45,548 nt of DNA from Prolixibacteraceae bacterium (GCA_036170635.1 JAVHPO010000212.1:1-45548), one strand, 5' to 3'. Positions 793-35,241 are shown, counted from the stretch's first letter. Notes: generated by a model from the letters alone, not told the origin. Made by a program: numbers and translations.

Positions 793-859
793 TGTGTGAA
801 TGATGTAACTTATGTTCAAAGTTATGTAACAACATACGGAATAATCCGGCTTACATTTG
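793..859 (+). promoter_or_regulatory. Composite stress-type promoter, copy 1
   Basis: box1 TGTGTGAATGATGTAAC (793-809), box2 TATGTAAC (823-830), -7-like TACATTTG (852-859). The next ATG at 884 is 25 nt after the octamer. Confidence 0.6.
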
Positions 860-883
860 AATTTAACTTCTAAATCATTTGAT

Positions 884-1069
884 ATGTCACTACTTAGTAT
901 TTTGGTAGCCATTATTGTGGTTGGTGTTCTCCTTTGGATTATCAATAATTTCCTGCCCATGGATCACCAAATCAAACGAATTTTCAACATTGTCGTTGTC
1001 ATAGCGTTGATTATTTGGCTTCTGAAGGCATTTGGACTTTTCGCGTACCTGACAAGTATTTACGTTTAA
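884..1069 (+). CDS. Small two-helix membrane protein (61 aa)
   Basis: The ORF track starts at TTG 857, but that codon sits inside the -7 box of promoter copy 1, so I take the first ATG (884). Hydrophobic helices MSLLSILVAIIVVGVLLWII and VVVIALIIWLLKAFGLF. From memory it resembles Thivi_2564-type small membrane proteins. Confidence 0.5.
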   Translation: MSLLSILVAIIVVGVLLWIINNFLPMDHQIKRIFNIVVVIALIIWLLKAFGLFAYLTSIYV

Positions 1070-1079
1070 ACAAATACAG

Positions 1080-1274
1080 ATGAATCTTAAGAGAATATTC
1101 GGAGCGCTGCTGACCCTTCTCGGAACAGGAGGTCTGATTTATGCAGCTGTACTTTTTGTCAATGCATCAGGCAATACACGGGATTTCAAGTCACTTGTCA
1201 TTTATGGTCTGCTTGGACTCCTGTTTTTTATTGCCGGCATAAGTTTGGTGCGCACGACGAAGGACGAATCGTGA
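1080..1274 (+). CDS. Small two-helix membrane protein (64 aa)
   Basis: Starts 10 nt after the previous stop. Two hydrophobic segments (IFGALLTLLGTGGLIYAAVLFV, LVIYGLLGLLFFIAGISLV). No family recognised. Confidence 0.45.
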   Translation: MNLKRIFGALLTLLGTGGLIYAAVLFVNASGNTRDFKSLVIYGLLGLLFFIAGISLVRTTKDES

Positions 1275-1412
1275 GATTAACAGCGGATATCCAACCTTAT
1301 CCAAAATTATATTGTATCAATTAACTACAAATATTGTTACCTCCTCTGGAAACACTACCTTTACCAGTACAGAATTGCGGAATTATTCAATCCCAATTTA
1401 ACACTGAACTCA

Positions 1413-3002
1413 ATGCAAGTAACGGTAACCAGAAAAAAACAGATTTTTTCTCCTGATTCTACACGGGTAATCGCCCGGTTTCTATATTTGGATGATGACC
1501 GGTCGGCGGATATAATCAGGAAGGTTTTGGCAATGCCCGAAGAGCAGGTGAAGATTGCCATGAGCCAGGTGCTGAGAGGTTACGCGCGTCGTCACAGAAA
1601 TATATCGCGCATATTTGAGAGGCATTTTGACAGACTTGCTCCCATCTTCGACAAGATTGAAGTCAATGAAGCGGATCTTAGTCCGGCGCAGAAAGCGTTG
1701 GTTGGTTCCTATTTTACCATGGAATATTCCATTGAATCTGCCGCTTTTTTTAATCCTTCCATTGTAGAACATCCCGATCAGTCTGAATTAAGATCAGATG
1801 AAAAAAGGGTGATTTTTAGTTTCCGGGCTACCGGCGAAGGGCATATCTCCTCAGTTGTCTTTCGATCAGGAATTCTTGACAGGCATAACAACCTCACCAT
1901 CGAACCTGTTGGTAAAATGCTGGCAGAAGCAGATAAAATTATACGAAATACATACCATAAAAAAAGTTTTAGGGAGAAACTGAATGAAATTCAAGATCAT
2001 AGCACGGTTATAGTTCCGCCAATACTGGCCGTAGATGAAATTCAGGTGCCTGAAGAAGTAATTTCTGCTGCTATATCAGATAAAAAAGAGGAGATGCAAG
2101 ACAAGGCCAAGGATGTTACACCAGATTTTATCCTTGATAAATTAGGTGAGACTTTTACTTATGGTGAATTGATGAAGAATCTTGGTATAGCCATCAAAGA
2201 TACTGCCATTACAGAAGAGCATATCAAAATAATCAATCAAATGATGTGGCTGGCTTCCTCTCATTATGAGATTCACTTTTCAATTGATTCAGCCATTTCC
2301 GAAAGGGTTATTTTCCCCATATCGGCAACCGAACAAAGGGGGATTGAGGATGCCAGGTTTGTTAAATTCATTGACGACAATGGAGAGGTAACTTATTTTG
2401 CTACTTATACTGCCTATGATGGAATATCCATTCTGCCCAAATTAATTAGTACCAAAGATTTCTACGATTTTAGGATTTTGCCAATTAATGGCGAGGTTGC
2501 CCAAAACAAGGGGATGGCGCTGTTTCCAAGGAGGATTAACGGGAAGTATGCCATGTTATGCAGAATAGACGGGGTAAATAATTATATTGCTTACTCGGAG
2601 AATATAAATATCTGGCGTACGGCCAAAGTTATTCAGAAACCCCAATTTCCCTGGGATCTTGTGCAAATTGGCAATTCCGGTTCTCCAATTGAGACCCCCG
2701 ATGGTTGGTTGGTTATTACGCATGCAGTCGGGTCTATGAGGGAATATACGCTTAGTGCATCCTTGTATGACCGCGAAAACCCCGAGATCTTAATCGGGAA
2801 GTTGAATGAACCGTTAATGGTCCCCAATGAAGAGGAAAGGGAAGGTTACGTGCCGAATGTAATCTATTCGTGCGGTTCTATGATTCACAATGAAGATCTG
2901 GTCATCCCGTATGCCATGTCGGATCACGCCTCCTCATACGCGACGGTTAATCTGAGGGAGTTACTGGATGTATTGAAGGCCACAGGCAACTCCGAAAAGT
3001 AG
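1413..3002 (+). CDS. GH130-like glycosidase/beta-mannoside phosphorylase-related protein with an unassigned N-terminal ~290-aa extension
   Basis: The C-terminal ~240 aa carry segments I associate with the PH1107-related/GH130 fold: GIEDARFVKF, YFATYTAYDG, MALFPRRINGKYAML, NSGSPIETPDGWLVITHAVG, YVPNVIYSCG. I recognise no family in the N-terminal half. Confidence 0.55.
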   Translation: MQVTVTRKKQIFSPDSTRVIARFLYLDDDRSADIIRKVLAMPEEQVKIAMSQVLRGYARRHRNISRIFERHFDRLAPIFDKIEVNEADLSPAQKALVGSYFTMEYSIESAAFFNPSIVEHPDQSELRSDEKRVIFSFRATGEGHISSVVFRSGILDRHNNLTIEPVGKMLAEADKIIRNTYHKKSFREKLNEIQDHSTVIVPPILAVDEIQVPEEVISAAISDKKEEMQDKAKDVTPDFILDKLGETFTYGELMKNLGIAIKDTAITEEHIKIINQMMWLASSHYEIHFSIDSAISERVIFPISATEQRGIEDARFVKFIDDNGEVTYFATYTAYDGISILPKLISTKDFYDFRILPINGEVAQNKGMALFPRRINGKYAMLCRIDGVNNYIAYSENINIWRTAKVIQKPQFPWDLVQIGNSGSPIETPDGWLVITHAVGSMREYTLSASLYDRENPEILIGKLNEPLMVPNEEEREGYVPNVIYSCGSMIHNEDLVIPYAMSDHASSYATVNLRELLDVLKATGNSEK

Positions 3003-3060: not shown

Positions 3061-3127
3061 TGTGTGAATGATGCAATTTTTTTATGCAATTGTGTAACGC
3101 ATTTAGATACTGGGTTCCTCATCTTTG
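3061..3127 (+). promoter_or_regulatory. Composite stress-type promoter, copy 2
   Basis: box1 TGTGTGAATGATGCAAT (3061-3077), box2 TGTGTAAC (3091-3098), -7-like CATCTTTG (3120-3127). ATG at 3154 is 27 nt after the octamer. Confidence 0.55.
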
Positions 3128-3153: not shown

Positions 3154-3348
3154 ATGGTTACCATGAACACAACAGAAGAAAACGGAAACCTGCATAAACT
3201 GAACGGAGCGCTCAAACAGAAATTCGCCCGTTTAACAAAGGACTACCAGCTGTACCAGGAAGGACTGCAACAGGAAGTATTTGGAAAACTGCAGATCAGG
3301 TATGGAAAAACTGAAAAAGAACTGGACATGATTATTGCGACGCTTTAA
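3154..3348 (+). CDS. CsbD-like general stress protein (64 aa)
   Basis: The pattern ...LNGALKQKFARLTKDYQLYQEGLQQEVFGKLQIRYGKTEKEL... matches the CsbD layout (G-x-K-x-K-x-x-LT-x-D ... EG ... GK-Q-x-RYG). Small, hydrophilic, and directly behind promoter copy 2. Confidence 0.55.
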   Translation: MVTMNTTEENGNLHKLNGALKQKFARLTKDYQLYQEGLQQEVFGKLQIRYGKTEKELDMIIATL

Positions 3349-3415
3349 AGTGGGAATGATGTAACTCTTCATGTTAATTGTGTAACATTTATCCTCATCG
3401 TGAAGCTCACATTTG
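3349..3415 (+). promoter_or_regulatory. Composite stress-type promoter, copy 3
   Basis: box1 AGTGGGAATGATGTAAC (3349-3365), box2 TGTGTAAC (3379-3386), -7-like CACATTTG (3408-3415). ATG at 3455 is 40 nt after the octamer. It begins right at the csbD-like stop codon. Confidence 0.6.
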
Positions 3416-3454: not shown

Positions 3455-3733
3455 ATGAACACAGGAAAAGTATTATTAGGTGTATTGGCTGGAGTCGCTA
3501 CAGGCGCTTTGCTGGGAATTTTATTCGCTCCGGCCAAGGGTTCACGTACCCGAAGAAGAATCCTCAGGCAGGGTGAGAGCTATGTGGACGGTCTAAAAGA
3601 AAAGTTCAACGAATATGCTGACACCATCACCGAGAAACTGGAACATGCCAAGGAAGAAGTCTCTGCATTTGCTCAAAAGGGTAAGGAGAAATTTGAAGAG
3701 GCTGAAAAAGAGGTGAAAGCATCCAAGGTTTGA
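3455..3733 (+). CDS. YtxH domain-containing protein (92 aa)
   Basis: N-terminal helix GVLAGVATGALLGILFAPAKGSRTRRRI is the YtxH signature. It is followed by a charged Lys/Glu-rich helical tail. Confidence 0.7.
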   Translation: MNTGKVLLGVLAGVATGALLGILFAPAKGSRTRRRILRQGESYVDGLKEKFNEYADTITEKLEHAKEEVSAFAQKGKEKFEEAEKEVKASKV

Positions 3734-6233: not shown

Positions 6234-8561
6234 ATGAAAAATGAAATAATTTCGGCTCTATCCGTTGATTCAATCCACACTTCCCAAGAGATCTTAGGAT
6301 TGGTTAATCACGGGACGATCCTTTTAAAAAGCAATGAAATTTGTTGGGAGTCAGCAAAGGAGTTTGCCGAAATATTGGTAGTAACCTCCTATCCTCCCCG
6401 GGAATGCGGCATTGCTACTTATTCTCAGGATCTGATCAGAGCCATTAACAACAAATTCAGCAATTCAATATCCATCAAGGTTTGTGCACTTGAATCCAAT
6501 GAAACAAATTACTCCTATCCCAGTGAAGTCAAATATATCCTTAAAACCTCACTGGCCGAAGAGTATGAAAAAATGGCGATTACAATCAATAAAAATGATC
6601 GTATCAAACTTATTCTCATTCAGCATGAGTTCGGATTCTATAAAAAGCAGGAAAACGCGTTTATGCAATTTCTATTTGAACTCTCTAAACCTGTTGTGAT
6701 CGCTTTTCATACCGTTTTGCCTCATCCTGATTTGGAATTACTCTCAAATATTAAACATATCTGCTCTGTATGTCAGTCAATTATAGTTATGACGCAATCC
6801 TCGGCTGATATTTTATTGAAGGAATACAATGTACCTTCTGAGAAGATCTCAGTGATTGCGCATGGTACACATCTGGTTCCTCATTTGAGCGAAAAGTTCT
6901 TGAAACAGAAGTATGGATTAACAAATAGAAAAGTTCTTACCACATTTGGTCTGCTGAGTTCAGGAAAAGGAATTGAAACCACACTGGCTGCTTTACCTGC
7001 GATTATCAAACAATGCCCTGAAGTTATGTTTATGATAATGGGTAAAACACATCCTGAGGTTGTTAAAACAGATGGAGAACAATACCGCGAAATGTTGGTG
7101 GAAACGGTAAACAAACTGGGAATTGAGGATCATGTACGTTTTATCAATAAATATCTGTCACTTACTGAATTGCTTGAATATCTACAACTTACAGACATAT
7201 ATCTCTTTACTGCAAATGATCCGAATCAGGCCGTAAGTGGCACCTTTGCCTATGCGATGAGTTGCGGTTGCCCCATCATTTCTACTCCCATTCCCCATGC
7301 CGTGGAAGTATTAACGACTGATACGGGTATAATTTTTGATTTTCGCGATTCCGGCCAGTTGGCAGCTGGTGTGAACCACTTACTTCAAAATGATTCTTTA
7401 CGAAAAAAACTCAGTGTCAATGTATTGCAAAAAATAATATCTACTGCCTGGGAAAATTCCGCAATTGAACATGCCTTGTTGTTGGGGAAAATTGCCGATG
7501 AAAAAATGGTACTACGGTACAATCTCCCGTCTATCAAGTTTGATCACCTCAACAATATGACTACCGATATCGGAATCATTCAATTTTCAAAAATCAACCA
7601 GCCAGATATTAATTCCGGATATACACTGGATGATAACGCCCGTGCACTGATTGCCTGTTGCATGTATTTCAAATTAACCGGTGATGAAAAAAGTGTGTTT
7701 TACATACAGAAATATCTGAATTTTGTTAAGTATTGCCAATTACCTTCCGGTGATTTCTTAAATTATGTCGACCAGGGGAGCCATTTTACTGACCAGAACA
7801 AAGCAGTAAATCTGGATGATTCCAACGGGAGGGCTATCTGGGCTTTGGGATACTTGATCTCATTGATTGATCTGCTTCCCACAAAAATAATACTTGAAGC
7901 TGACAGAATACTCGCTAAATCGCTCCTTACATTTGACAGGGTTCATTCTACGAGAGCAATGTCCTTTGCTATCAAGGGGGTGTATTATTATCACCACACC
8001 ATGAAATCGAGCGAAAATCTACTTCTGACCAAAACCTTAGCCAATCGGTTGGTACAGATGTACAAACACGAATCGACAAGAGAATGGGAATGGTTCGAGG
8101 GATATCTCACTTATGCCAACAGCATCTTACCGGAAGCTATGTTGTATGCATGGTTGTTGACTGGTGAAGAAAATTACAAGGAGATCGCAAATTCGTCCCT
8201 GGATTTTCTGCTCTCGCATACCTTCAATCAAAATGGAATCGAAGTAATTTCCAACAAAGAATGGTTTTTCAGGGGTGGGGAAACAGGGAAATTTGGTGAA
8301 CAACCTATTGATGTTGCCTATACTATCATGACATTAAGCAAATTCTACGATGTATTTGATAACGACAAAATGTATGAAAAAATGGTTACAGCATTCAATT
8401 GGTTTTTAGGGGAAAACCGTTTGCACCAAATTGTTTACAACCCCTGTACCGGAGGCTGCTATGATGGATTGGAAGAGAGGAATGTTAACCTCAATCAGGG
8501 TGCTGAATCAACGATTAGTTACCTGATGGCCAGATTAACCATTGAAAAGTATAATAAGTAA
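6234..8561 (+). CDS. Group 1 (GT4-type, GT-B fold) glycosyltransferase fused to a ~340-aa C-terminal domain of unknown function
   Basis: The N-terminal ~430 aa have the GT4 layout (ILVVTSYPPRECGIATYSQDL..., FGLLSSGKGIE, AVSGTFAYAMSCGCPIISTP). Residues ~440-775 are helix-rich (DDNARALIACCMY, SNGRAIWALGYL, YLTYANSILPEAMLYAW), reminiscent of an alpha/alpha-toroid glycoside-binding domain. Confidence 0.6.
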   Translation: MKNEIISALSVDSIHTSQEILGLVNHGTILLKSNEICWESAKEFAEILVVTSYPPRECGIATYSQDLIRAINNKFSNSISIKVCALESNETNYSYPSEVKYILKTSLAEEYEKMAITINKNDRIKLILIQHEFGFYKKQENAFMQFLFELSKPVVIAFHTVLPHPDLELLSNIKHICSVCQSIIVMTQSSADILLKEYNVPSEKISVIAHGTHLVPHLSEKFLKQKYGLTNRKVLTTFGLLSSGKGIETTLAALPAIIKQCPEVMFMIMGKTHPEVVKTDGEQYREMLVETVNKLGIEDHVRFINKYLSLTELLEYLQLTDIYLFTANDPNQAVSGTFAYAMSCGCPIISTPIPHAVEVLTTDTGIIFDFRDSGQLAAGVNHLLQNDSLRKKLSVNVLQKIISTAWENSAIEHALLLGKIADEKMVLRYNLPSIKFDHLNNMTTDIGIIQFSKINQPDINSGYTLDDNARALIACCMYFKLTGDEKSVFYIQKYLNFVKYCQLPSGDFLNYVDQGSHFTDQNKAVNLDDSNGRAIWALGYLISLIDLLPTKIILEADRILAKSLLTFDRVHSTRAMSFAIKGVYYYHHTMKSSENLLLTKTLANRLVQMYKHESTREWEWFEGYLTYANSILPEAMLYAWLLTGEENYKEIANSSLDFLLSHTFNQNGIEVISNKEWFFRGGETGKFGEQPIDVAYTIMTLSKFYDVFDNDKMYEKMVTAFNWFLGENRLHQIVYNPCTGGCYDGLEERNVNLNQGAESTISYLMARLTIEKYNK

Positions 8562-8593
8562 CAACCGGATCTGTTCAAATAAACTTATCTGCT

Positions 8594-9226
8594 TTGAAAA
8601 CTCTGAGAATAGATACAGAAAAAACAAAATCTGTGGCCCTCATCATAGCGCATCCTGATGATGAAACATTGTGGGCCGGAGGAACGATCCTTTCACATCC
8701 TGAGTGGAACTGGTTTATTGTTTGTCTTTGCCGTCGCAGCGACAAGGAACGGGCCTCCAAATATAGCAAGGTGGTTAAGATTCTTAAGGCCAAGGGGATT
8801 ATGGGTGACCTCGACGATGGTCCTCAGCAAATACCATTGGATGATAGTGAGGTGGAGAATAGTATCCTGGAGTTATTACCCCTGAAACATTATGATTTGC
8901 TGATTACCCACAATATTAACGGAGAATATACAAGGCACCTCAGGCATGAGGAGATAAGCAAAGCTGTGATAAAGCTTTGGCAGTCAGGCGAAATTGATGC
9001 TGATGAACTATGGACATTCGCTTACGAAGATGGCAACAAGGCCTATTTCCCAATTGCTGTCGAAAAGGCATCGGTTTTTAAGCAATTACCGCAAAACATC
9101 TGGAACAAAAAATACAACATTATTACAGAATCATACGGTTTTGATCAGAATAGCTGGGAAGCCAAAACAGTACCTCATGCTGAAGCATTCTGGCAATTCA
9201 CCAATCTGCTTCATGCTAAAAACTGA
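8594..9226 (+). CDS. PIG-L/LmbE-family N-acetylglucosaminyl deacetylase
   Basis: N-terminal signature VALIIAHPDDETLWAGGT (AHPDDE zinc-site motif) and a typical size of 210 aa. TTG start at 8594, with GTG at 8630 as an alternative. Confidence 0.7.
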   Translation: MKTLRIDTEKTKSVALIIAHPDDETLWAGGTILSHPEWNWFIVCLCRRSDKERASKYSKVVKILKAKGIMGDLDDGPQQIPLDDSEVENSILELLPLKHYDLLITHNINGEYTRHLRHEEISKAVIKLWQSGEIDADELWTFAYEDGNKAYFPIAVEKASVFKQLPQNIWNKKYNIITESYGFDQNSWEAKTVPHAEAFWQFTNLLHAKN

Positions 9227-9282
9227 GTTAGCAATTTGTAAATGAGACAATTCTAATTATCAATAACTAATTATTTTTTCAA

Positions 9283-9325
9283 TTTTCACATTTTCACATT
9301 TTCACATTTTCACATTTTCACATTT
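9283..9325. repeat. Octanucleotide tandem repeat (TTTTCACA)x5 plus partial unit
   Basis: Five perfect units at 9283-9322 followed by TTT, preceded by a degenerate unit TTTTTCAA (9275-9282). It ends 6 nt before the ATG of the next glycosyltransferase (9332). Confidence 0.95.
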
Positions 9326-9331
9326 ATTTTC

Positions 9332-10474: not shown

Positions 10475-10483
10475 TGTTGAAAT

Positions 10484-11683: not shown

Positions 11684-11750
11684 TGTGTGAATCATGTAAC
11701 TCTTTACCGGAATTGTGTAAAGCATTTCTGCCCATATAAACAGACCTTTG
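11684..11750 (+). promoter_or_regulatory. Composite stress-type promoter, copy 4
   Basis: box1 TGTGTGAATCATGTAAC (11684-11700), box2 TGTGTAAA (11714-11721), -7-like GACCTTTG (11743-11750). The next annotated gene starts 139 nt later (11889). A 29-codon sORF starts at 11788. Confidence 0.55.
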
Positions 11751-11888
11751 TATTGTGAAGATTCATTCACAATTGATATTCAATAAAATGCAAACGTTAA
11801 AAAACACGACAATGGCCTGCACAAGGGTCGCAAAATTCACCAGAAATAGTCTTTTGTTTAAAACGAATATTCTCTGACAAAAATTATA

Positions 11889-12738: not shown

Positions 12739-12805
12739 CCTGTGAATTATGTAACTCATTGTAAATATTTTGTAACATTTCTGGGACAAAAGCTGCTTAA
12801 CTTGG
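12739..12805 (+). promoter_or_regulatory. Composite stress-type promoter, copy 5
   Basis: box1 CCTGTGAATTATGTAAC (12739-12755), box2 TTTGTAAC (12769-12776), -7-like TAACTTGG (12798-12805). ATG at 12877 is 72 nt downstream. Confidence 0.55.
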
Positions 12806-17978: not shown

Positions 17979-18045
17979 CAAAGATGAAAAGTTCAGGATC
18001 GGATAGTGTTACATTGTTTTAGAAAAAATTTACATGATTCACACT
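17979..18045 (-). promoter_or_regulatory. Composite stress-type promoter, copy 6 (minus strand)
   Basis: Read on the minus strand: box1 AGTGTGAATCATGTAAA (18045-18029), box2 AATGTAAC (18015-18008), -7-like CATCTTTG (17986-17979). The mlaE start at 17956 is 23 nt after the octamer. Confidence 0.6.
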
Positions 18046-18144: not shown

Positions 18145-18211
18145 GGTGTGAATCATATAACTCTTAACCGTAATTGTGTAACGCTTTCTGTTAAGGAATG
18201 AATCAACTTTA
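18145..18211 (+). promoter_or_regulatory. Composite stress-type promoter, copy 7
   Basis: box1 GGTGTGAATCATATAAC (18145-18161), box2 TGTGTAAC (18175-18182), -7-like CAACTTTA (18204-18211). ATG at 18249 is 38 nt after the octamer. Confidence 0.6.
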
Positions 18212-18248
18212 CAAAGTGAAAATTCATTCACAAGATAATACCACTACA

Positions 18249-19209: not shown

Positions 19210-19276
19210 TGTGTGAATGATGTAAGTTATTATCAGAATAGTGTAACATGTCAGGAAGCTTTACCCCCTACTTTTA
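19210..19276 (+). promoter_or_regulatory. Composite stress-type promoter, copy 8
   Basis: box1 TGTGTGAATGATGTAAG (19210-19226), box2 AGTGTAAC (19240-19247), -7-like TACTTTTA (19269-19276). ATG at 19305 is 29 nt after the octamer. Confidence 0.6.
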
Positions 19277-22834: not shown

Positions 22835-22901
22835 TATGTGAATTATATAAAATATATCCTGAATTGTGTAATTCTTTCCGGCAACAAGAAAATAACTTTA
22901 A
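22835..22901 (+). promoter_or_regulatory. Composite stress-type promoter, copy 9 (most degenerate copy)
   Basis: box1 TATGTGAATTATATAAA (22835-22851), box2 TGTGTAAT (22865-22872), -7-like TAACTTTA (22893-22900, offset 28 rather than 29). The tal ATG is 106 nt downstream. Confidence 0.45.
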
Positions 22902-26582: not shown

Positions 26583-26614
26583 TTGAAAATTAAATTTTTA
26601 AAAGAAGATCACTA

Positions 26615-26803
26615 ATGACTGACAATAAGCAAAATCACCAGCCTCAGGAAGGGCAGGATTACATCAAGGGTCCCAATGACCATACACCACGCTGGAAACA
26701 GCTGCATCACAGTTGGATATTCTGGGTTTTCTTATTTTTGATGTTGGTTGGCATCTTATATTACATTGTAACACTTGGTTTTGCTTTTGCGCCTCAAAAA
26801 TAA
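26615..26803 (+). CDS. Small single-pass membrane protein (62 aa)
   Basis: Hydrophilic N-terminus then WIFWVFLFLMLVGILYYIVTLGFAF. Lies between xfp and fba. No family recognised. Confidence 0.4.
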   Translation: MTDNKQNHQPQEGQDYIKGPNDHTPRWKQLHHSWIFWVFLFLMLVGILYYIVTLGFAFAPQK

Positions 26804-26864
26804 CTAAGGAGTAAGCATTAATTAACTGATTAAAAGAATATTAGTAAATAGAAACAAAAATGCT

Positions 26865-27887
26865 ATGAATAAGACATTATTGATGGGAACAGCAAAATCA
26901 TTGGTTTCAAATGACAAAGGCATATTGGCAATGGACGAAAGTTTCCCAACCTGCAACAAACGATTTGCCAAATTGGGAATTCCCCAGACTGAGGAGTTCA
27001 GGCGTGCCTATCGGGAGTTAATTGTTACTACTCACGGTCTTGGTAAGTTTATTAGTGGTGCTATCCTCTTTGACGAGACCATCCGTCAGAAAATAAAAGA
27101 TGGAACACCTATGATCAAGGTGATCGCCGATGCCGGAATAATTCCCGGTATCAAGGTTGACACCGGAGCAAAAGAGATGGCTGGTCACCCCGGAGAGAAA
27201 ATATCCGAAGGGCTGGATGGACTTCGCGACCGTCTTATTGAATATCATCAAATGGGTGCGCGTTTTGCCAAGTGGCGCGCAGTTATTGTTATTGGCGATG
27301 GAATTCCTACACATGGTTGCATAGAAGCTAATGCGCAATCGTTGGCACGCTATGCCGCATTGTGCCAGGAGATTGGACTGGTTCCCATTGTAGAGCCGGA
27401 AGTACTGATGGATGGAGAACATACTATGGAGCGTTGCTTTGAAGTAACGGAAGAAGTCTTACGGACAGTTTTCAATCAACTTTACCTGCAACGGGTGTTG
27501 TTGGAAGGCATGATATTAAAATGCAACATGGTTTTACCCGGATTAGCCTGCCCTAAACAAGAATCGGCGGATGATATAGCGGATGCCACTATGAAGTGCC
27601 TTTTGCGCGCTGTTCCTGCTGCTGTTCCGGGGATTGCATTTTTATCGGGTGGTCAATCTGCTGAATTGGCTTCCGCCCGGTTAAATGCGGTGAATGTCAG
27701 ATTTAAATCAAAATTACCCTGGGAATTATCATTCTCTTTTGGCCGCGCCATCCAACAACCGGCATTGGAAATTTGGCATGGTGAGGAAGCCAACGTGTCC
27801 AAGGCACAGCAAGCCCTTTATCAAAGATCCAGATGCAACTTCGCTGCCCGCAAGGGTGAATACAATCCCACACTGGAAACCAAATGA
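26865..27887 (+). CDS. fba: Class I (Schiff-base, eukaryote-type) fructose-bisphosphate aldolase
   Basis: ILAMDES...CNKRF near the N-terminus and the Schiff-base lysine block LLEGMILKCNMV. 340 aa. Confidence 0.85.
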   Translation: MNKTLLMGTAKSLVSNDKGILAMDESFPTCNKRFAKLGIPQTEEFRRAYRELIVTTHGLGKFISGAILFDETIRQKIKDGTPMIKVIADAGIIPGIKVDTGAKEMAGHPGEKISEGLDGLRDRLIEYHQMGARFAKWRAVIVIGDGIPTHGCIEANAQSLARYAALCQEIGLVPIVEPEVLMDGEHTMERCFEVTEEVLRTVFNQLYLQRVLLEGMILKCNMVLPGLACPKQESADDIADATMKCLLRAVPAAVPGIAFLSGGQSAELASARLNAVNVRFKSKLPWELSFSFGRAIQQPALEIWHGEEANVSKAQQALYQRSRCNFAARKGEYNPTLETK

Positions 27888-27984: not shown

Positions 27985-28051
27985 GGTGTGAATAATGTAA
28001 CTCTTTTCTAAAGTTATGTAACAATTGTCTGATTTCAGTGGACTAAATTAG
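27985..28051 (+). promoter_or_regulatory. Composite stress-type promoter, copy 10
   Basis: box1 GGTGTGAATAATGTAAC (27985-28001), box2 TATGTAAC (28015-28022), -7-like TAAATTAG (28044-28051). ATG at 28075 is 24 nt after the octamer. Confidence 0.6.
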
Positions 28052-28074: not shown

Positions 28075-28287
28075 ATGAAAAATAAAGCCAATTCACTGGA
28101 TCTAACTATAAGAGATTCTGGTAGTTATAATAATTTTATAGCGCCAGACTATCCGGATTATCCTGATTGTGATGATATCTACAATACTCATCTTGACAGA
28201 ACAGAAATTGATTCAATAAATATATTTCGAACCAAAGCGTCTCCACAAATATCAAAAAAGCATGAAGGTATTCAGAAATCTAACTAA
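28075..28287 (+). CDS. Hypothetical acidic small protein (70 aa)
   Basis: First ATG behind promoter copy 10. Asp/Tyr/Pro-rich (APDYPDYPDCDDIY), no hydrophobic segment. Overlaps the next ORF by 26 nt. Confidence 0.4.
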   Translation: MKNKANSLDLTIRDSGSYNNFIAPDYPDYPDCDDIYNTHLDRTEIDSINIFRTKASPQISKKHEGIQKSN

Positions 28288-28693
28288 TCAGCAAAAGCAA
28301 GCGCTCCTTAAATTTCCCGCATATATTTCCTTGCTTGCGTCGACAGGTAGCAAAATGGATGAAGCAGAAAGACTGGAGGCAATCAAATTTGCCCATATCA
28401 AAGCATTTTCCTGCCAACCCCTTTTGGCTGAATTTTGCAGGGAATCGGAAATCGTTTTTGCAGAAAATCTGACACAACTAGAAGCTGTATTGCCGAAAAA
28501 TAAAAATGAGAGGGATGTAGCAATCAGAATAGAATTATTGAAACTTGAAATGATATTATTGCAGTTAGGAAAGGAGTATGGTTCAATCATGCACCAGAGC
28601 ATGAAAACCTTTAAAGAGCATGTGTTAAAAGCCCACCACAGTGTCATAGAGGATTTTCTATTTCCGATTTCCATCCCCGGATTATCGGATTGA
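28262..28693 (+). CDS. Hypothetical helical protein (143 aa)
   Basis: Complete ORF that looks predominantly helical. No family recognised. Confidence 0.45.
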   Translation: MKVFRNLTNQQKQALLKFPAYISLLASTGSKMDEAERLEAIKFAHIKAFSCQPLLAEFCRESEIVFAENLTQLEAVLPKNKNERDVAIRIELLKLEMILLQLGKEYGSIMHQSMKTFKEHVLKAHHSVIEDFLFPISIPGLSD

Positions 28694-28805: not shown

Positions 28806-28872
28806 TGTGTGAATGATGTAAATATTTTCAAAGGTTGTGTAACACTTTTATGTTCAAAGTAATACAACTTTG
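28806..28872 (+). promoter_or_regulatory. Composite stress-type promoter, copy 11
   Basis: box1 TGTGTGAATGATGTAAA (28806-28822), box2 TGTGTAAC (28836-28843), -7-like CAACTTTG (28865-28872). ATG at 28916 is 44 nt after the octamer. Confidence 0.6.
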
Positions 28873-28915: not shown

Positions 28916-29746
28916 ATGATGTCAATCACATACTATTTATTGCAATTACCATCTTTTGTACTTTTCATTCTGATCATTTCGATTGGGGCAATTGGAGCTG
29001 GGCTAGGCGCTTTCCTTTTTCGTAAATACGCGAATTTGAAGATTCTCCGGTCACACAATGAAGTAACCGGGTTCCTTTTTTTGGCTTTGACTAGTTTTTA
29101 TGCATTTCTGCTAAGCTTTATTGTATTTATGGTTTGGGGCCAGCTGAATGAAACGAGGGGCAATGTGAGCAAGGAAGGTAGCTCTGCCATGGGTCTGTAC
29201 CGCGACATCAAATTTTATCCGGATACCGTTGAATCTAAACAACTCATGATTGTTTACCTCGATTTCATATACAACGTAATTGATGAAGAATTCCCCAACA
29301 TGGAACAAATGAAGCTCAGCCGAAAAACTCCGGAATCATTTGATCGTGTCTTTTATAAAATGGAGCATCTCAATCCCAAAAATCAGTTTCAGGTTCAGCT
29401 GGTAGCAGAAATGTTTAACCATTTGAATCAACTGGCAACCTATAGGGGTCTTCGTGAATCCTCCCTTGAAAAGGAAATCCCTTCCGCATTATGGTGGCCA
29501 ATGTTACTGGGAGCACTCATTACCCTCTTTTGTGCCATGTTGCTTGATATTGAGAATGCAAGGCTGCATATAACCTTAAACGCAATGCTGGGGGTTTTCA
29601 TTGGGATGCTATTCTTTATTATTCTTCTGCTTGATCATCCCTATTCCGGCAGCCTAAGTATTAAGCCTCAATCGTATAAGCAAATATTTACCCTGGAAAA
29701 GTGGGACAATGATACCCATGTAAAAAAAATCGATCCCATTAATTGA
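28916..29746 (+). CDS. DUF4239-like membrane protein
   Basis: 276 aa with two N-terminal and two C-terminal TM helices flanking a soluble helical core (…LNETRGNVSKEGSSAMGLYRD…), as I recall for DUF4239. Confidence 0.5.
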   Translation: MMSITYYLLQLPSFVLFILIISIGAIGAGLGAFLFRKYANLKILRSHNEVTGFLFLALTSFYAFLLSFIVFMVWGQLNETRGNVSKEGSSAMGLYRDIKFYPDTVESKQLMIVYLDFIYNVIDEEFPNMEQMKLSRKTPESFDRVFYKMEHLNPKNQFQVQLVAEMFNHLNQLATYRGLRESSLEKEIPSALWWPMLLGALITLFCAMLLDIENARLHITLNAMLGVFIGMLFFIILLLDHPYSGSLSIKPQSYKQIFTLEKWDNDTHVKKIDPIN

Positions 29747-30341: not shown

Positions 30342-30408
30342 TGTGTGAATAATGCAACTCTTTTTATAAATTCTGTAAAAATTCATTTGTTACAGTCCCC
30401 TACCTTAG
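30342..30408 (+). promoter_or_regulatory. Composite stress-type promoter, copy 12
   Basis: box1 TGTGTGAATAATGCAAC (30342-30358), box2 TCTGTAAA (30372-30379), -7-like TACCTTAG (30401-30408). The bfr ATG at 30442 is 34 nt after the octamer. An extra box pair lies just upstream (30290-30328). Confidence 0.6.
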
Positions 30409-30441: not shown

Positions 30442-30921
30442 ATGAAAGGGAACAAAGATTTACTTATCGTCCTGAATTCACTCCTGGCAGACGAACTTAC
30501 GGCGATAAACCAGTATATGGTCCATTCTGAAATGTGTGAAAGCTGGGGTTACGGAAAGCTTCATATAGCTATCCGAAAACAAGCTATGGATGAAATGTAT
30601 CATGCAGAATGGCTAATTGAACGAATTATATTTTTTGATGGTACACCAACAGTTTCCACACTGAATGCCATGAAGATTGGTAAAACTGTTAAAGAAATGA
30701 TTAGCAATGACAATGGTGATGAACTCAACGCTGTACATGCCTATAACAAGGCAATCAAACTCGCCCAGGAAGTCGGTGATCAGGGAACCGTTGACCTTTT
30801 GACAAAGATCCTGAAAATGGAAGAAGGTCATGTAGATTGGGCAGAAATGCAGAGGGCTCAGATAGAACAGATGGGATTGGAAAATTATCTGGCTGGTCAG
30901 AATGCGACTCCTGCAAGCTGA
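30442..30921 (+). CDS. bfr: Bacterioferritin
   Basis: By my count all ferroxidase ligands are in E. coli Bfr positions (E18, E51, H54, E94, E127, H130), as is the haem-ligand Met52 (AMDEMYHAE). Confidence 0.9.
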   Translation: MKGNKDLLIVLNSLLADELTAINQYMVHSEMCESWGYGKLHIAIRKQAMDEMYHAEWLIERIIFFDGTPTVSTLNAMKIGKTVKEMISNDNGDELNAVHAYNKAIKLAQEVGDQGTVDLLTKILKMEEGHVDWAEMQRAQIEQMGLENYLAGQNATPAS

Positions 30922-31019: not shown

Positions 31020-32084
31020 ATGCCATCTTTAGCAGCAATTGCGAAAATTGATTTCCCATATAAAGTTAGTCAACAGAAAGTAAAAGAAGGTGCACAAGCT
31101 TTATTTGCGTCTTCATTCCCGCAAGTTGAAAGAATGATGAGTGCTTTCGACAACACAGAAATAAAAACAAGAAATCTCTGCAAACCGCTTGATTATTATA
31201 CAACCTTGCATTCTTTTCAAGACCAGAATGCGGAATATATCCGCGTTTCTCTTGATTATTCAGTCAAAGCGATTGAGAAGTGTATCTCATCAGCTCAAAT
31301 TGATAAAGATGAAATTACGGATATTATTTTCATCTCAACAACCGGACTGTCAACACCAAGTTTAGATGCACTTATTATTAACAAAATGAGACTGAACCAG
31401 AATATCGGTCGAATGGCCATTTTTGGTTTGGGATGCGGAGGCGGTGTTGCCGGATATTCAAAAGCCAACATTCTGGCAAAAGCAAATCCTGATGCCGTGG
31501 TGTTACTAGTGGCTGTTGAATTGTGTTCGCTGACTTTTCTGCGAAATGATTTCAGTAAAAGTAATTTTATAGGTTCAAGTCTGTTTGCAGATGGTGTGGC
31601 AGCCTGCCTTATTACTGGTGATAATCGTGCAAACAAAACAAAAAACACCATTGCTTTTCTGGACACACAAAGCAAATTGTATTACGATACTTTGGACGTT
31701 ATGGGATGGGAATTTCTGGATAGTGGATTTAAAGTGCTGTTTTCCTCTGATATTCCTACGATTATAGCCAATAATATCAATACCGATGTTACTTCATTTC
31801 TCGAAAAACATCATTTGAAAATTTCAGATATAAAGAATTTTATTTTCCATCCAGGCGGAAAAAAAGTGCTGACAGCTTATGAAGAGGCATTAAAGGCAGA
31901 CGGCGATTTCCTTAAGAATACGAGGGAAGTGATGAACGAAAATGGCAATATGTCGAGTACAACTGTCTTGTATGTTTTGGAAAGATTCTTTTCCGCAGGT
32001 TTCAGAAATGGCTACGGACTTATGGTTTCAATGGGTCCGGGCTTCTCAAGTGAAATGGTTTTACTACAGATGCAAAGCAAATAA
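31020..32084 (+). CDS. Type III polyketide synthase (chalcone/stilbene synthase family, BpsA-like)
   Basis: Cys-His-Asn triad contexts are present: FGLGCGGGVAG (Cys), FIFHPGGKKVL (His), ENGNMSSTTVLYVL (Asn). 354 aa. Confidence 0.85.
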   Translation: MPSLAAIAKIDFPYKVSQQKVKEGAQALFASSFPQVERMMSAFDNTEIKTRNLCKPLDYYTTLHSFQDQNAEYIRVSLDYSVKAIEKCISSAQIDKDEITDIIFISTTGLSTPSLDALIINKMRLNQNIGRMAIFGLGCGGGVAGYSKANILAKANPDAVVLLVAVELCSLTFLRNDFSKSNFIGSSLFADGVAACLITGDNRANKTKNTIAFLDTQSKLYYDTLDVMGWEFLDSGFKVLFSSDIPTIIANNINTDVTSFLEKHHLKISDIKNFIFHPGGKKVLTAYEEALKADGDFLKNTREVMNENGNMSSTTVLYVLERFFSAGFRNGYGLMVSMGPGFSSEMVLLQMQSK

Positions 32085-32576
32085 ATGATTTTCATTCTAT
32101 TCATATCATTTCTTGTTTTTCTTCGAATTGAAGAATTGATGTTGTCTAAACGGAATGAGAAATGGTTGTTGGAAAATGATGCAGTTGAATACGGGAGTAA
32201 ACATTATCCATTCATTGTAGCGCTTCATGTTTTATTTTTTCTTTCACTGATTTTAGAATACACCGCACAGCAGGACCATTCTTTCAGTTTACTCCTGATC
32301 ATTTTCTACTTTTTACTCCTTACATTTAAAATCTGGATCATTGTATCATTGGGAAAATTTTGGAACACCCGTATTTACCATATCCCAAATATGCCCTTGA
32401 TAAAAAGAGGGCCATACAAGTATTTTAAACATCCAAATTATGCAGTTGTAATAGCTGAGATTGCTGTTATCCCGATGATATTTCATTTGTATATCACTGC
32501 CACTGTATTTACGATGCTTAATCTGATAATGTTGATTGTCAGAATTAAAGAAGAGAATAAGGTATTGCAGACCTAG
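32085..32576 (+). CDS. Isoprenylcysteine carboxyl methyltransferase (ICMT)-family membrane methyltransferase (BpsB-like)
   Basis: Starts on the base after the PKS stop. 163 aa, multi-pass, with GPYKYFKHPNYAVVIAEI matching the ICMT/PEMT-type motif. Confidence 0.75.
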   Translation: MIFILFISFLVFLRIEELMLSKRNEKWLLENDAVEYGSKHYPFIVALHVLFFLSLILEYTAQQDHSFSLLLIIFYFLLLTFKIWIIVSLGKFWNTRIYHIPNMPLIKRGPYKYFKHPNYAVVIAEIAVIPMIFHLYITATVFTMLNLIMLIVRIKEENKVLQT

Positions 32577-32609
32577 AACAGGGAACACTCATTATCAATA
32601 CAATATAAA

Positions 32610-35162
32610 TTGAAACCAAACCTTACATCAGAAAAATACAAAGGCTTATCCGCCAGCAAGGCAAAGGAAAAGCTACGAACGGAAGGGTATAACAGTCTCC
32701 CGTCCTCAAAACCTAAAAACTTTTTATCTATTGCGCTGGGAGTCGTCAAAGAACCCATGTTTATACTTTTGGTTGCTTGTGGTTCTTTGTATCTGGTTTT
32801 GGGGGATTTACAGGAAGGTTTAATGTTGTTGGGCTTTGTCTTCGTCATCATGGGGATCGAATTCTTTCAGCAGAAAAAGACCGAGAAAGCTCTCGATGCC
32901 TTAAAAGAGATGGCAAGTCCGAGGGCTTTGGTCATTCGGGATGGCGCTGAGATACGCATCGCAGGTTTTGAAGTTGTTACCGACGACCTAATAGTCTTGC
33001 AGGAAGGTGACAGGGTTCCGGCAGATGCAACTGTATTGCAATCGGTTAGCTTATTGGTTGATGAATCCTTACTTACGGGAGAATCAGTCTCTGTCAGGAA
33101 AACCGATTGGGATGAAACTGAAAAGATAACACAACCCGGAGGCGACGATTTACCTTTCATTTTTGCAGGCTCCATGATTGTTCAGGGAAACGGCATTGCC
33201 CAGGTGACCAGGATAGGTATCCAAACTGAAATAGGGAAAATTGGCAAAGAACTCGAAAACATCAAAGACCAACCAACCCTGCTTAAAAAGGAGATGGGTT
33301 CATTGGTGAAAAAGCTGACCATCATTGCCGCTTTACTGTGTATTTTGGTGATCGTCGCTTTTACATTTAGCCGTGGAAGTCTGATTAATGGATTTCTGGC
33401 AGGAATAACGCTGGCCATGGCAGTGTTACCCGAAGAATTTCCTGTTATTCTCACCGTGTTTATGGCTCTAGGTGCTTGGCGAATGTCAAAAAAGAAAGTG
33501 TTGACACGAGATCCATTGGCTATTGAAACCCTCGGTTCAGCAACCGTGCTTTGTACCGACAAAACCGGTACGCTTACTGAAAATAAAATGACTGTGACCA
33601 GGCTTTACAATGGCAAAGATTTTCATACTGTCGAAAAATCCAACGAATTAAATTCAGAATTTCATGAAATCATGGAATATGGCATTCTTTCCAGTCAAAC
33701 CAATCCCTTTGATCCAATGGAAAAAGCCATCTCTGGCATGGGCAAATTGTATCTGAAAGGGACCGAACATATTCATCAAAACTGGGAAATGATCAAGGAA
33801 TATCCGCTTTCCAAAGAATTACTGGCCATGTCTCGGGTTTTTTCGTCAAAAGAAACAAGGGAAAAAATTATTGCCACAAAAGGAGCTCCTGAAGCCATTT
33901 TTGAACTTTGCCATTTGGATGCAAAAGAAATCAAACGGCTCTCACATGCGGTTGAAGAATTAGCTTCCGATGGTTTAAGGGTGTTAGGTGTAGCGAAAGC
34001 CAAAATTGTAGCACAAGGCTTACCAGAAATTCAACACGATTTTATATTTGAATTTATTGGATTGATTGGACTTTCAGATCCCATTCGTGCAAATGTTAAA
34101 CTAGCTGTAAGTGAATGTTATAAAGGCGGTATCCGGGTCATTATGATTACTGGGGATTATCCGGTAACGGCCAAACATATTGCTTTGGAAATTGGTCTTG
34201 AAAATCCTGAAATGTGCATGACCGGACAGGAATTACATGCAATATCGGATGCCCAATTGTGCAAAATGATAAAGCAAATCAACGTTTTTGCAAGGGTTGT
34301 TCCGGAGCAAAAACTTAAAATCGTAAATGCATTAAAGAAAAACGGGGAAATTGTGGCTATGACAGGTGATGGAGTGAATGATGCTCCAGCGCTAAAATCT
34401 GCTGATATTGGCATCGCCATGGGGGAAAAAGGCACCGATGTCGCCCGTGAAGCTTCTTCGTTGGTTCTCATGGATGATAATTTTTCTTCCATTGTTGGCG
34501 CCATCCGAATGGGCAGACGCATATTCGATAACCTCCAAAAATCTTTTGGATACATCTTTGCTATCCATGTACCTATTGCCGGATTATCTTTATTGCCTAT
34601 ACTACTGGGTAATTTCCCCATTATCTTATGGCCTGTGCACATCGTTTTTCTCGAATTAATCATTGATCCGGCCTGCTCTATAATTTTTGAAGCCGAAAAG
34701 GAAGAGAAAAATGTAATGAACCGACCACCAAAACAAATTAATGAACCTTTTTTTGGAAATAGGAAAATCCTGTTTAGCTGTTTGCAGGGGGTAGGTATCC
34801 TAATCATCACCCTTGCCGTCTATTTTACAGGTCTTCACCTTGGATATGTAGCTGAGGAAGTAAGGGCAATGACTTTTACCACCTTAATCATTTCGAATAT
34901 TTCGGTTATATTAACCAACCGCTCATGGTCCGACAATATATTTAAGATTATAGCCACACCCAATAAAGCAGTGTTATGGGTTTCAGGCGGGGCAATATTC
35001 TTTCTGATATTGGTTTTAAACATCCCATTTTTTCTAAGTTTATTCCAGTTTCAAAAGCTTACATTAATTAATATACTCATCTGTAGTCTGGCAGGGTTAA
35101 CAAGCATCATTTGGTTCGAAATATATAAGCTGTTTAAACTGAAAAAAGATGAATTACTGTAA
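32610..35162 (+). CDS. Cation-translocating P-type ATPase (P2-like)
   Basis: TGES (LLTGESVSV), phosphorylation site CTDKTGTLT, hinge TGDGVNDAPALK. The M4 motif is PEEFP instead of PEGLP. N-terminal Cation_ATPase_N-like LSASKAKEKLRTEGYN. TTG start. Confidence 0.85.
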   Translation: MKPNLTSEKYKGLSASKAKEKLRTEGYNSLPSSKPKNFLSIALGVVKEPMFILLVACGSLYLVLGDLQEGLMLLGFVFVIMGIEFFQQKKTEKALDALKEMASPRALVIRDGAEIRIAGFEVVTDDLIVLQEGDRVPADATVLQSVSLLVDESLLTGESVSVRKTDWDETEKITQPGGDDLPFIFAGSMIVQGNGIAQVTRIGIQTEIGKIGKELENIKDQPTLLKKEMGSLVKKLTIIAALLCILVIVAFTFSRGSLINGFLAGITLAMAVLPEEFPVILTVFMALGAWRMSKKKVLTRDPLAIETLGSATVLCTDKTGTLTENKMTVTRLYNGKDFHTVEKSNELNSEFHEIMEYGILSSQTNPFDPMEKAISGMGKLYLKGTEHIHQNWEMIKEYPLSKELLAMSRVFSSKETREKIIATKGAPEAIFELCHLDAKEIKRLSHAVEELASDGLRVLGVAKAKIVAQGLPEIQHDFIFEFIGLIGLSDPIRANVKLAVSECYKGGIRVIMITGDYPVTAKHIALEIGLENPEMCMTGQELHAISDAQLCKMIKQINVFARVVPEQKLKIVNALKKNGEIVAMTGDGVNDAPALKSADIGIAMGEKGTDVAREASSLVLMDDNFSSIVGAIRMGRRIFDNLQKSFGYIFAIHVPIAGLSLLPILLGNFPIILWPVHIVFLELIIDPACSIIFEAEKEEKNVMNRPPKQINEPFFGNRKILFSCLQGVGILIITLAVYFTGLHLGYVAEEVRAMTFTTLIISNISVILTNRSWSDNIFKIIATPNKAVLWVSGGAIFFLILVLNIPFFLSLFQFQKLTLINILICSLAGLTSIIWFEIYKLFKLKKDELL

Positions 35163-35174
35163 ATGGCTTAATGA

Positions 35175-35241
35175 TGTGTGAATCATGTAACTCTTCTCAA
35201 AAATTCTGTAACACTTATCAGATTTTGGTTATTTAATTTAG
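35175..35241 (+). promoter_or_regulatory. Composite stress-type promoter, copy 13
   Basis: box1 TGTGTGAATCATGTAAC (35175-35191), box2 TCTGTAAC (35205-35212), -7-like TAATTTAG (35234-35241). The sod ATG at 35441 is 200 nt downstream. Confidence 0.55.

Follow-up and report, generated by a model that had tools for sequence, protein, structure and literature searches.

A two-repeat promoter element of the Bacteroidota and its probable AraC-type activator

Main finding

We analyzed a stretch of 45,548 nucleotides from a Prolixibacteraceae bacterium (GCA_036170635.1 JAVHPO010000212.1:1-45548), and this whole stretch is called the window below. A 67-nt element occurs in it thirteen times between positions 793 and 35241. 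We argue that the element is probably a promoter read by the primary sigma factor with the help of an AraC-type activator, and that it serves a regulon that spans the phylum Bacteroidota. One group of genes for the candidate activator, group A, would be autoregulated and would act together with a kinase and a receiver protein. The case is built on comparing sequences within the window and across genomes.

Thirteen copies with one geometry

The thirteen copies were listed in an initial annotation of the window, and they are found where it placed them, 12 on the plus strand and 1 on the minus strand (Table 1). The core GTGAATNATGTAAC is matched with at most 2 mismatches 18 times in the window, against 1.55 expected matches and a maximum of 7 in 100 shuffles. 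All 13 copies are among these 18 matches with 0-2 mismatches each, which agrees with the annotation. Copy 3 gives an extra match at 3373 through its second repeat. Box 1 and box 2 end 21 nt apart in 13/13 copies, also as annotated. A position weight matrix (PWM) made from the 13 copies gives them scores of 40.7-62.4 bits. Every other position in the window stays below 18 bits, and 12.2 is the maximum over 20 shuffled windows. Each copy is intergenic and points toward the next gene, as had been claimed. The distance from the octamer at the downstream end of the element to the ATG is short in 9 copies, where we measure 22-43 nt.

The architecture is that of two 17-bp direct repeats with a 21-bp period, GTGAATnATGTAAC and then AnTTnTGTAAC. 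A -7 box of the primary-sigma type, nAnCTTTG, starts exactly 21 bp past the second repeat. The alignment of the 13 copies reads (T)GTGTGAATnATGTAAC-TnTT-n-AnTTnTGTAAC-n21-nAnnTT(T/A)(G/A). Two parts of the annotated consensus have to be revised here. Box 2 does contain the TGTAAC site that was described, but this is the 3' part of a complete second repeat, AnTTnTGTAAC. The octamer is present too, but TAnnTT(T/A)G does not describe it well, since its leading T is found in just 6/13 window copies; (T/C)AnnTT(T/A)(G/A) is better.

Bacteroides-type primary-sigma promoters have TTTG at -33 and TAnnTTTG at -7. The primary-sigma box TAnnTTTG of Flavobacterium psychrophilum lies at -12 to -5 (PMC9723704). 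If the last G of our -7 box is set as -5, the distal repeat TGTGTGAATnATGTAAC, which has the full consensus, falls at about -71 to -55 relative to the predicted start. The proximal repeat AnTTnTGTAAC is weaker and falls at about -50 to -34, abutting -33. It had been proposed that box 2 sits near -33 in place of TTTG, and this stands: the proximal repeat ends at about -34 and there is no TTTG at -33. GTAAC, the 3' end of the proximal repeat, lies there together with bases that are not conserved.

The element in other genomes

One genome per species was scanned for 185,579 species with the pattern GTGAATNATGTAAC-N15-TGTAAC. This is the upstream part of the element only, and it covers just 4/13 window copies. 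Distribution and copy numbers from the scan are lower bounds, and the locus counts given below refer to the loci listed, at least 120 (designated by L and a number). About 4-12 chance matches were calculated. The listed records are labelled Bacteroidota almost throughout and include environmental Bacteroidales, Prolixibacteraceae, Paludibacter, Lentimicrobiaceae, Chitinophagaceae, Saprospiraceae, Flavobacteriia, Sphingobacteriales and Cytophagales. The nearest relatives of the window's organism among them are apparently Prolixibacteraceae, with an MlaE that is 82% identical in L085. Two motif-bearing contigs have labels from outside the Bacteroidota, Candidatus Saccharibacteria (L097) and Candidatus Kapaibacterium (L094); the former is probably a mis-binned contig.

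The -7 box is not part of the search pattern, yet it is found at the same offset. It reads nAnnTTTG in 86/134 listed sites and nAnnTT[TAC][GAT] in 108/134, and the commonest octamers in these 134 sites from other genomes are CACCTTTG and TACCTTTG. Information content is highest at positions 2-18 and 28-39. The 21-nt spacing in the 134 sites is imposed by the pattern; the same repeat register is seen in the PWM-detected sites of six loci that were found by protein similarity. The spacers are unconserved, so it is the whole 67-nt arrangement that makes up the conserved unit.

The behavior of the element as a promoter was examined with 229 matrix matches, each scoring 25 bits or more and placed 400 nt or more from the end of a listed locus. 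Only 20/229 (9%) overlap an open reading frame (ORF), against 82% of random positions. A co-oriented ORF with an ATG start lies within 300 nt of 206/229 (90%), against 16% for random positions, and the median distance from motif to ORF start is 46 nt. The intergenic enrichment and the orientation bias predicted for a promoter are therefore both there, and the element is not as frequent inside genes or as random in orientation as a dispersed repeat would be.

The first genes past the motif elsewhere are orthologues of the window targets, and this holds across different orders of Bacteroidota. CsbD is found in this position in 10 loci, the 110-aa secreted protein in 8, the Thivi_2564-type tiny membrane protein and an OmpA-like protein in 7 each, and MlaE in 6. 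YtxH, Usp and a 171-aa unknown protein are found in 2 loci each, and AI-2E, Bestrophin, a 775-aa GT4 and a lipoprotein in 1 each. When 150 first downstream genes are tallied by Pfam family, OmpA leads (14), followed by glycine zipper (8), Ice_binding and CsbD (7 each), MlaE (6), DUF6600 and receiver domains (5 each), HTH_18 (4), DUF5670 (3), and Usp, YtxH and PAP2 (2 each). The content of the regulon is envelope and protection, plus energy maintenance (Xfp, Ack, PPK2 and a hibernation factor, from the neighborhoods described below). We argue that the element is a promoter class with a conserved regulon and not a dispersed repeat because it has a fixed offset to the -7 box, faces gene starts and recurs before the same gene families. 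The annotation had united the downstream genes of the window in one regulon, and the 229-site test and the conservation of the orthologues support this. On gene content alone, "stress/dormancy" would be a fitting label for it.

A candidate regulator linked to the element

The gene directly past five strict sites encodes a protein of 181-191 aa whose C-terminal domain is HTH_18/HTH_AraC (Pfam). A search with tblastn found that this AraC/XylS-family protein of about 185 aa is encoded in 23/120 listed 8-kb loci, all retrieved by the DNA motif alone. By our estimate fewer than 1 such locus would be expected by chance if there are 1-3 gene copies per genome. The genes fall into groups A and B. The motif lies 48-51 nt before the ATG of group A genes in L009, L013, L020 and L100, and 156-261 nt before it in L054 and L024. 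Group A forms an operon: behind the regulator gene come genes for a hybrid PAS-HisKA-HATPase-receiver kinase and then for a receiver-only protein of 145-154 aa. The kinase and the receiver protein are each about 60-80% identical across loci.

Group B has a different arrangement. In seven loci the motif starts 3 nt before the stop codon of the group B gene. The protein ends in ...LENV*, and the codons GAA AAT GTG TGA hold the start of the motif. This overlap of gene end and motif is kept across taxa (L013 434-436, L016, L022, L053, L057, L064, L075), and the overlapping motif copy would drive the next gene.

The reciprocal test used six homologues that were picked by protein similarity only. 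The motif is upstream in 5/6 of their loci, and at 50 nt or less in four of them (L122, L123, L125 and L128; Table 1). The called gene start of L128 is probably about 60 nt too early. These six loci have 4-9 motif copies each, within at most 20 kb. Their neighboring genes are of the kinds seen in the window and include Nramp, AI-2E, YtxH, a holin-X-like protein, GH130, GT4, DUF5670, PPK2, Ack, hibernation factor (HPF), Xfp and Fba. Both the AraC protein and the motif are unusually conserved across orders. Autoregulation and linkage are the usual grounds in comparative genomics for assigning a regulator, and they are not proof.

The family has at least 8,000 clusters at 90% identity, named just "AraC family transcriptional regulator". 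Among NCBIfam models only generic AraC-family ones match, far below their cut-offs, and no equivalog model reaches its cut-off. An AlphaFold model (predicted local distance difference test, pLDDT, 71.5) has a beta-alpha-beta-beta-alpha unit at residues 1-55, a long helix and a C-terminal DNA-binding domain. The modelled C-terminal domain matches the DNA-binding domains of MarA, SoxS, Rob, AraC and AdpA. The N-terminal 55 or so residues are modelled as a ferredoxin-like fold with a weak match to the heavy-metal-associated (HMA) domain of CopA. In the alignment the N-terminus reads MVSxRCK with an invariant Cys6, and some group B members have MVCxRC, which is the HMA-type CxxC motif. It is speculation that the HMA-like domain and the invariant Cys could form a contact surface or one that senses metal or redox state.

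A hairpin at the predicted start

The predicted +1, exactly 4 nt after the octamer, is where a 16-nt palindrome, GTGAAnnnnnnTTCAC, starts in some copies. Among 266 non-identical sites, 27 have a palindrome with 5/5 Watson-Crick pairs at this offset, versus 0-6 at other offsets. The window has two (Table 1), and others are in L011, L027, L031, L046, L059, L093, L098, L107 and further loci, so that about 10-14% of motif copies have one. Where a single pair is odd, 7/10 odd pairs are of the G.U type on the sense strand and 0 are A.C, though the numbers are small. There are also compensatory A-T/T-A and G-C/A-T changes. The palindrome and the distal repeat have the word GTGAA in common. A repressor operator was considered and rejected for the palindrome, because G.U-type pairs and compensatory changes suit an RNA hairpin better. 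In the mRNA the palindrome probably forms a 5'-terminal stem-loop, and such stem-loops are a known way of stabilizing transcripts. A hairpin at this point is also indirect support for the predicted start site.

A second hairpin, CCGCCAG(A/T)(A/G)GCGG, directly follows the +1 palindrome in L030, L045, L065, L071, L087 (two copies) and L111. It often lies ahead of CsbD-like genes, has no Rfam match and is absent from the window. It may be a conserved leader RNA. Rfam at the gathering threshold finds one tRNA only in the window and 11 loci, and the element and its leaders match no RNA family there.

Proposed mechanism and its rivals

We propose that two subunits of the AraC/XylS-family protein of about 185 aa would sit on the two repeats. 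From N- to C-terminus, each subunit would consist of an HMA-like domain of about 55 residues, a helix that serves as linker and a double helix-turn-helix (HTH) domain. The promoter-proximal subunit would recruit RNA polymerase with the primary sigma factor, as AraC does at araI1-I2 and XylS at Pm. The output would be a phylum-wide regulon of envelope, stress-protection and energy-maintenance genes, with 13 of its transcription units clustered in the window. The motif ahead of group A implies positive autoregulation, and the co-transcription of the kinase and receiver genes with group A suggests input from a phosphorelay. The regulator itself has no receiver domain.

The initial annotation left a choice between an alternative sigma factor and an activator bound to two in-phase TGTAAC sites. 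We favor the activator over the sigma factor, for several reasons. The downstream box is a -7 box of the primary-sigma type. The conserved sequence extends to about -71, which is past the reach of sigma contacts. The repeats have the geometry of AraC/XylS sites. A gene of the AraC family lies in physical linkage with the motif, which in group A also precedes that gene's own start. Seven annotated neighborhoods have no sigma gene: Sigma70_r2 and Sigma70_r4 have no match in these Pfam-annotated neighborhoods. There are likewise no sigma genes among the 25 families listed for the 150 downstream genes, a list that covers part of the ORFs of the 120 loci.

It must be noted that several observations weigh against an AraC-type activator as we propose it. 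The window itself has no copy of the candidate gene by tblastn. There are two paralogue groups, and their DNA-reading helices are nearly identical. The first base of the -7 box is weak across genomes, where C is commonest and often stands instead of T. L127 is the 1/6 reciprocal loci with no motif adjacent to the AraC gene. L122 has the motif variants ATATAAC/TATAAC, yet the recognition helices of its protein do not differ from those of the others. The Kaistella jeonii homologue locus (L130) has only a diverged motif of 17.6 bits, upstream of ack-xfp, even though its protein shares 80% identity with the query, a Robiginitalea homologue. The window-derived matrix does not transfer unchanged to every family, and in Kaistella the site has drifted. 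Finally, the AraC gene might be merely another member of the regulon that lies near others. As for the Kaistella locus itself, an N-type ATPase operon (AtpR, ATPase_gene1) adjoins the AraC homologue (L130 2315-9618), and a small ORF, ack and xfp are downstream of the diverged motif copy.

The last of these objections leads to another explanation, in which the promoters and their regulon are genuine but the repeats are read by a transcription factor encoded elsewhere, and the AraC-kinase-receiver operon is just a frequent target. The link to the AraC gene is indeed correlative. Five receiver-domain genes lie directly past the motif, so regulatory genes are common targets, and L127 fits this reading. 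We nevertheless consider it unlikely. HTH_18/HTH_AraC are the sole DNA-binding families among the 25 listed for the 150 downstream genes, and no other DNA-binding family is found in the seven Pfam-annotated neighborhoods. The site geometry is typical of the AraC family, and the shared conservation of protein and motif across orders also speaks for a direct relation. A sigma factor that reads the element by itself is a good deal less probable still. TGTAAC would be the -35-like and nAnCTTTG the -10-like element of such a promoter, with no activator. "AAC" is a typical -35 signature of extracytoplasmic function (ECF) sigma factors and TGTAAC carries it, the -33 TTTG is missing, the first -7 base deviates from TAnnTTTG, and other phyla drive their general stress regulons by sigma factors. 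However, the downstream box has the sequence of a primary-sigma -7 box, and its position puts the conserved 5' hairpin exactly at the predicted +1. ECF promoters have a spacer of 16-17 nt to a CGT-type -10, whereas here 21 nt separate TGTAAC from nAnCTTTG, so neither the spacer nor the -10 of an ECF or alternative sigma is found. Conservation peaks in the distal repeat (-71 to -55), outside sigma contacts, and Sigma70 domain genes are absent from the seven neighborhoods and the 25 listed downstream families.

One could also suppose that the repeats are a repressor operator, and that the promoters are constitutive from their -7 box and silenced until stress. Sequence alone does not give the sign of regulation, and the +1 palindrome with its GTGAA word in about 14% of copies could be an operator. 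But the repeats lie wholly upstream of -34 and replace -33, which is the position of a class II activator and not of a steric repressor. The palindrome, with its G.U-type pairs and compensatory changes, is better explained as RNA. AraC/XylS-family proteins are mostly activators. We infer that binding of the AraC-type protein activates the regulon and give repression a very small chance. A LytTR-type regulator was considered on account of the 21-bp period and was dropped, as the sites do not match its consensus and the annotated neighborhoods have no LytTR gene. The scenario that we regard as practically negligible is a dispersed repetitive or mobile sequence without promoter function, like a repetitive extragenic palindrome (REP) or a miniature inverted-repeat transposable element (MITE). 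The many near-identical copies within 35 kb are what one would expect of it. Against this, 90% of sites are co-oriented with a gene and 9% overlap an ORF versus 82% of random positions, which is an extreme bias. The same element precedes orthologous genes in different orders, its conservation is limited to positions that look like protein contacts while the spacers vary freely, and terminal inverted repeats and target duplications are absent. We return then to the AraC-type activator as the probable reader of the element.

A further proposal goes beyond the promoter, and we make it tentatively, with slightly less confidence than an even chance would express. The AraC-type paralogues, the hybrid PAS kinase and the receiver protein could be the master switch of the general stress/dormancy response in most Bacteroidota. 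We know of no RpoS, SigB or EcfG-type general stress sigma factor in this phylum. If the proposal is true, the switch would be the functional counterpart of SigB, RpoS and EcfG, with an activator that supplies the missing -33 contact and not a replacement of sigma. The 67-nt element would then read out the whole regulon in any genome of the phylum, and the regulon would include dozens of uncharacterized small envelope proteins.

Genes served in the window

Table 1. Copies of the element with the genes they are predicted to serve, palindromes at the predicted +1, and motif sites of the reciprocal test
Feature	Position	Strand	PWM (bits)	Genes served or remark
Copy 1	793..859	+	55.9	Core with 0 mismatches; Thivi_2564-family tiny membrane protein 884-1069, second tiny membrane protein 1080-1274, GH130 1413-3002 (Pfam, NCBIfam)
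Copy 2	3061..3127	+	54.8	CsbD-like gene 3154-3348 (Pfam CsbD)
Copy 3	3349..3415	+	54.7	Begins directly after CsbD stop codon; YtxH 3455-3733 (Pfam)
Copy 4	11684..11750	+	61.8	30-codon small ORF 11788-11880, DUF3108 11889-12677 (Pfam)
Copy 5	12739..12805	+	49.0	OmpA-family protein 12853-14097 (Pfam)
Copy 6	17979..18045	-	55.1	Divergent from copy 7; mlaE 17956-17168, mlaF, mlaD, 377-aa unknown protein (Pfam)
Copy 7	18145..18211	+	58.7	Lipoprotein (end 18545), Usp 18646-19143 (Pfam Usp)
Copy 8	19210..19276	+	53.8	Secreted 110-aa protein 19305-19637
Copy 9	22835..22901	+	40.7	Weakest copy; tal, xfp, class I fba 23006-27887 (Pfam)
Copy 10	27985..28051	+	57.7	Two unknown proteins 28075-28693
Copy 11	28806..28872	+	61.8	Bestrophin-like protein 28916-29746 (Pfam), 171-aa unknown protein
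Copy 12	30342..30408	+	57.7	bfr 30442-30921 (Pfam)
Copy 13	35175..35241	+	62.4	sod 35381-36076 (Pfam)
Palindrome GTGAAGATTCATTCAC	11755..11770	+		Starts at predicted +1 of copy 4
Palindrome GTGAAAATTCATTCAC	18216..18231	+		At predicted +1 of copy 7
L122 motif	49 nt upstream of AraC gene start		45.8	
L123 motif	18 nt before called start		55.0	40 nt before MVS... start
L125 motif	47 nt upstream of AraC gene start		27.7	
L128 motif	Overlaps called AraC gene start		55.1	
L129 motif	268 nt upstream of AraC gene start		38.5	

Pfam bears out the annotated identities of GH130, CsbD, YtxH, DUF3108, OmpA, MlaE/F/D, Usp, Tal, Xfp, class I Fba, Bfr and Sod. One of the "four unknown proteins" of the annotation is Bestrophin-like, and Pfam and NCBIfam give no family for the two proteins behind copy 10. 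Besides the Bestrophin-like protein, Pfam adds AI-2E, two GT4 glycosyltransferases, PIG-L, GH100/GDE_C, an M1 peptidase, a type III polyketide synthase, ICMT, a P-type ATPase, OYE and CbpA/CbpM. For copies 3, 12 and 13 we infer the extent of the operon. Copy 3 probably also drives the co-directional genes up to 11680, which are holin-X-like, an AI-2E transporter, two GT4, PIG-L and GH100/GDE_C. The unit of copy 12 probably runs on past bfr to 35162, through the genes of the type III polyketide synthase, the ICMT-family methyltransferase and the P-type ATPase. Copy 13 may also serve an alpha/beta hydrolase, an OYE reductase and, further downstream, cbpA-cbpM. Copy 8 perhaps also serves the M1 peptidase (19805-22813).

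Several of these units recur in other loci. Orthologues of the tiny membrane protein of copy 1 lie 22-35 nt past the motif in 7 other loci listed. The lipoprotein of copy 7 has an orthologue downstream of the motif in L059, and the Bestrophin has one with 77% identity in L086. The genes xfp, ack, hpf and fba are found in the motif-rich neighborhoods of the AraC gene in L122 and L127.

The GH130 gene (1413-3002) and the two GT4, PIG-L and GH100/GDE_C-like hydrolase genes (6234-11680) are all under motif promoters. GH130 and GT4 again adjoin the AraC gene in L129. This set may be for the making or turnover of a compatible solute or glycolipid. The polyketide synthase gene is followed by the methyltransferase gene downstream of bfr (31020-32576). 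We take this pair to resemble the phenolic-lipid (alkylresorcinol) gene pairs of Streptomyces (srsAB) and of Azotobacter cysts. An alkylresorcinol-like gene pair would suit a program of dormancy or envelope remodelling.

Some leaders are long. The 138-nt leader between copy 4 and DUF3108 has within it the putative 30-codon ORF (MQTLKNTTMACTRVAKFTRNSLLFKTNIL). The tal leader has 104 nt (22902-23005). That of sod has 139 nt, or about 200 nt if the second Met is the start (35242-35440). The tal and sod leaders are unusually long against the 22-43 nt of other units, and Rfam finds nothing in either.

It had been noted that the window has no regulator gene. This holds except for a CbpM-like MerR_2 protein (39085-39387), a co-chaperone partner. 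Its gene follows that of CbpA, a DnaJ-type protein (38182-39387 for the two), and it is the only helix-turn-helix protein of the window. It is probably a modulator of the co-chaperone and not a regulator of the motif.

Uses of the element

The element is a sharp signature of 40-60 bits that can be scanned for, and it marks a conserved set of genes for the envelope, protection and energy maintenance. It points to one widespread, unnamed AraC subfamily with kinase and receiver partners as a testable regulator. Cultured carriers of the motif or the regulator gene are Labilibaculum sp. K2S, Sunxiuqinia indica, Robiginitalea sp. SC105, Maribacter, Flagellimonas and Psychroflexus. The element also gives functional context to uncharacterized proteins, such as the Thivi_2564 family, DUF5670, DUF6600 and the 110-aa secreted protein. 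Stress-inducible promoters for the engineering of Bacteroidota could be derived from it.

Comparison with known systems

In a literature search whose coverage left out most subscription journals, we found no description of the motif or its regulator, and no general stress regulator or regulon described for Bacteroidota. A non-canonical promoter motif of this phylum is PM2 of B. thetaiotaomicron, which is near-palindromic with elements at -10/-30 and is associated with oxidative-stress and stationary-phase genes (Ryan et al. 2020, PMC7366714). Our element is likewise non-canonical, but it combines a canonical -7 box with a pair of direct repeats at -71 to -34.

Known general stress systems resemble this one in content. 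Bacillus SigB, EcfG-NepR-PhyR and RpoS regulons share with it CsbD, YtxH, Usp, iron storage of the Bfr/Dps type, Sod, OmpA-type proteins and a hibernation factor, and kinase and receiver proteins are linked to their master regulators. Those systems swap the sigma factor, whereas here the primary-sigma -7 box is kept and an activator is apparently used; the seven annotated neighborhoods have no linked sigma or anti-sigma gene. Mycobacterial DosR offers an analogy, being a transcription factor with sensor kinases that is autoregulated and has several dozen dispersed and clustered genes, many of them for Usp and for uncharacterized small proteins. It differs in that DosR is a LuxR-type response regulator on a palindrome, while the candidate here is AraC-type on direct repeats and its receiver is a separate protein.

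The promoter geometry has other parallels. LytTR promoters (AgrA, ComE, PlnC) likewise place direct repeats with a period of about 21 bp just ahead of the -35 region. Their consensus is [TA][AC][CA]GTTN[AG][TG], as 9-bp repeats with a 12-13-bp spacer, and TGTAAC does not fit it on either strand. MarA, SoxS and Rob of the Enterobacteria are AraC-family activators of dispersed stress-defense genes and are among the closest structural matches of our candidate. They use a degenerate site of about 20 bp that is fixed in position and orientation relative to the promoter, as the repeats are here. However, they are monomers on a single marbox, unlike the two rigidly spaced repeats, and the extra N-terminal domain of our protein could mediate pairing.

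The closest likeness in geometry is with araI1-I2 of AraC (pBAD) and Pm of XylS. Both have direct repeats with a 21-bp period, where the proximal one abuts the -35 equivalent and the distal one is stronger. Our element has the same layout: two head-to-tail repeats of about 15-17 bp, the distal one nearer to consensus, and the proximal one ending at the -35 equivalent in place of a good -35. The candidate regulator also has the double-HTH AraC domain. There are also differences. Its N-terminus is an HMA-like fold of about 55 residues, whereas that of AraC is a cupin sugar-binding domain. Its target would be a large, phylum-wide regulon of many operons and not one catabolic operon, genes for a hybrid kinase and a receiver protein are linked to its own, and its polymerase partner would be the Bacteroidota primary sigma with a -7 box. 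An AraC-type activator on tandem repeats is thus a conventional class II mechanism of the AraC/XylS kind. What is apparently new, as far as we found, is the motif, the regulon with its phylum-wide reach, and an AraC subfamily with kinase and receiver partners.

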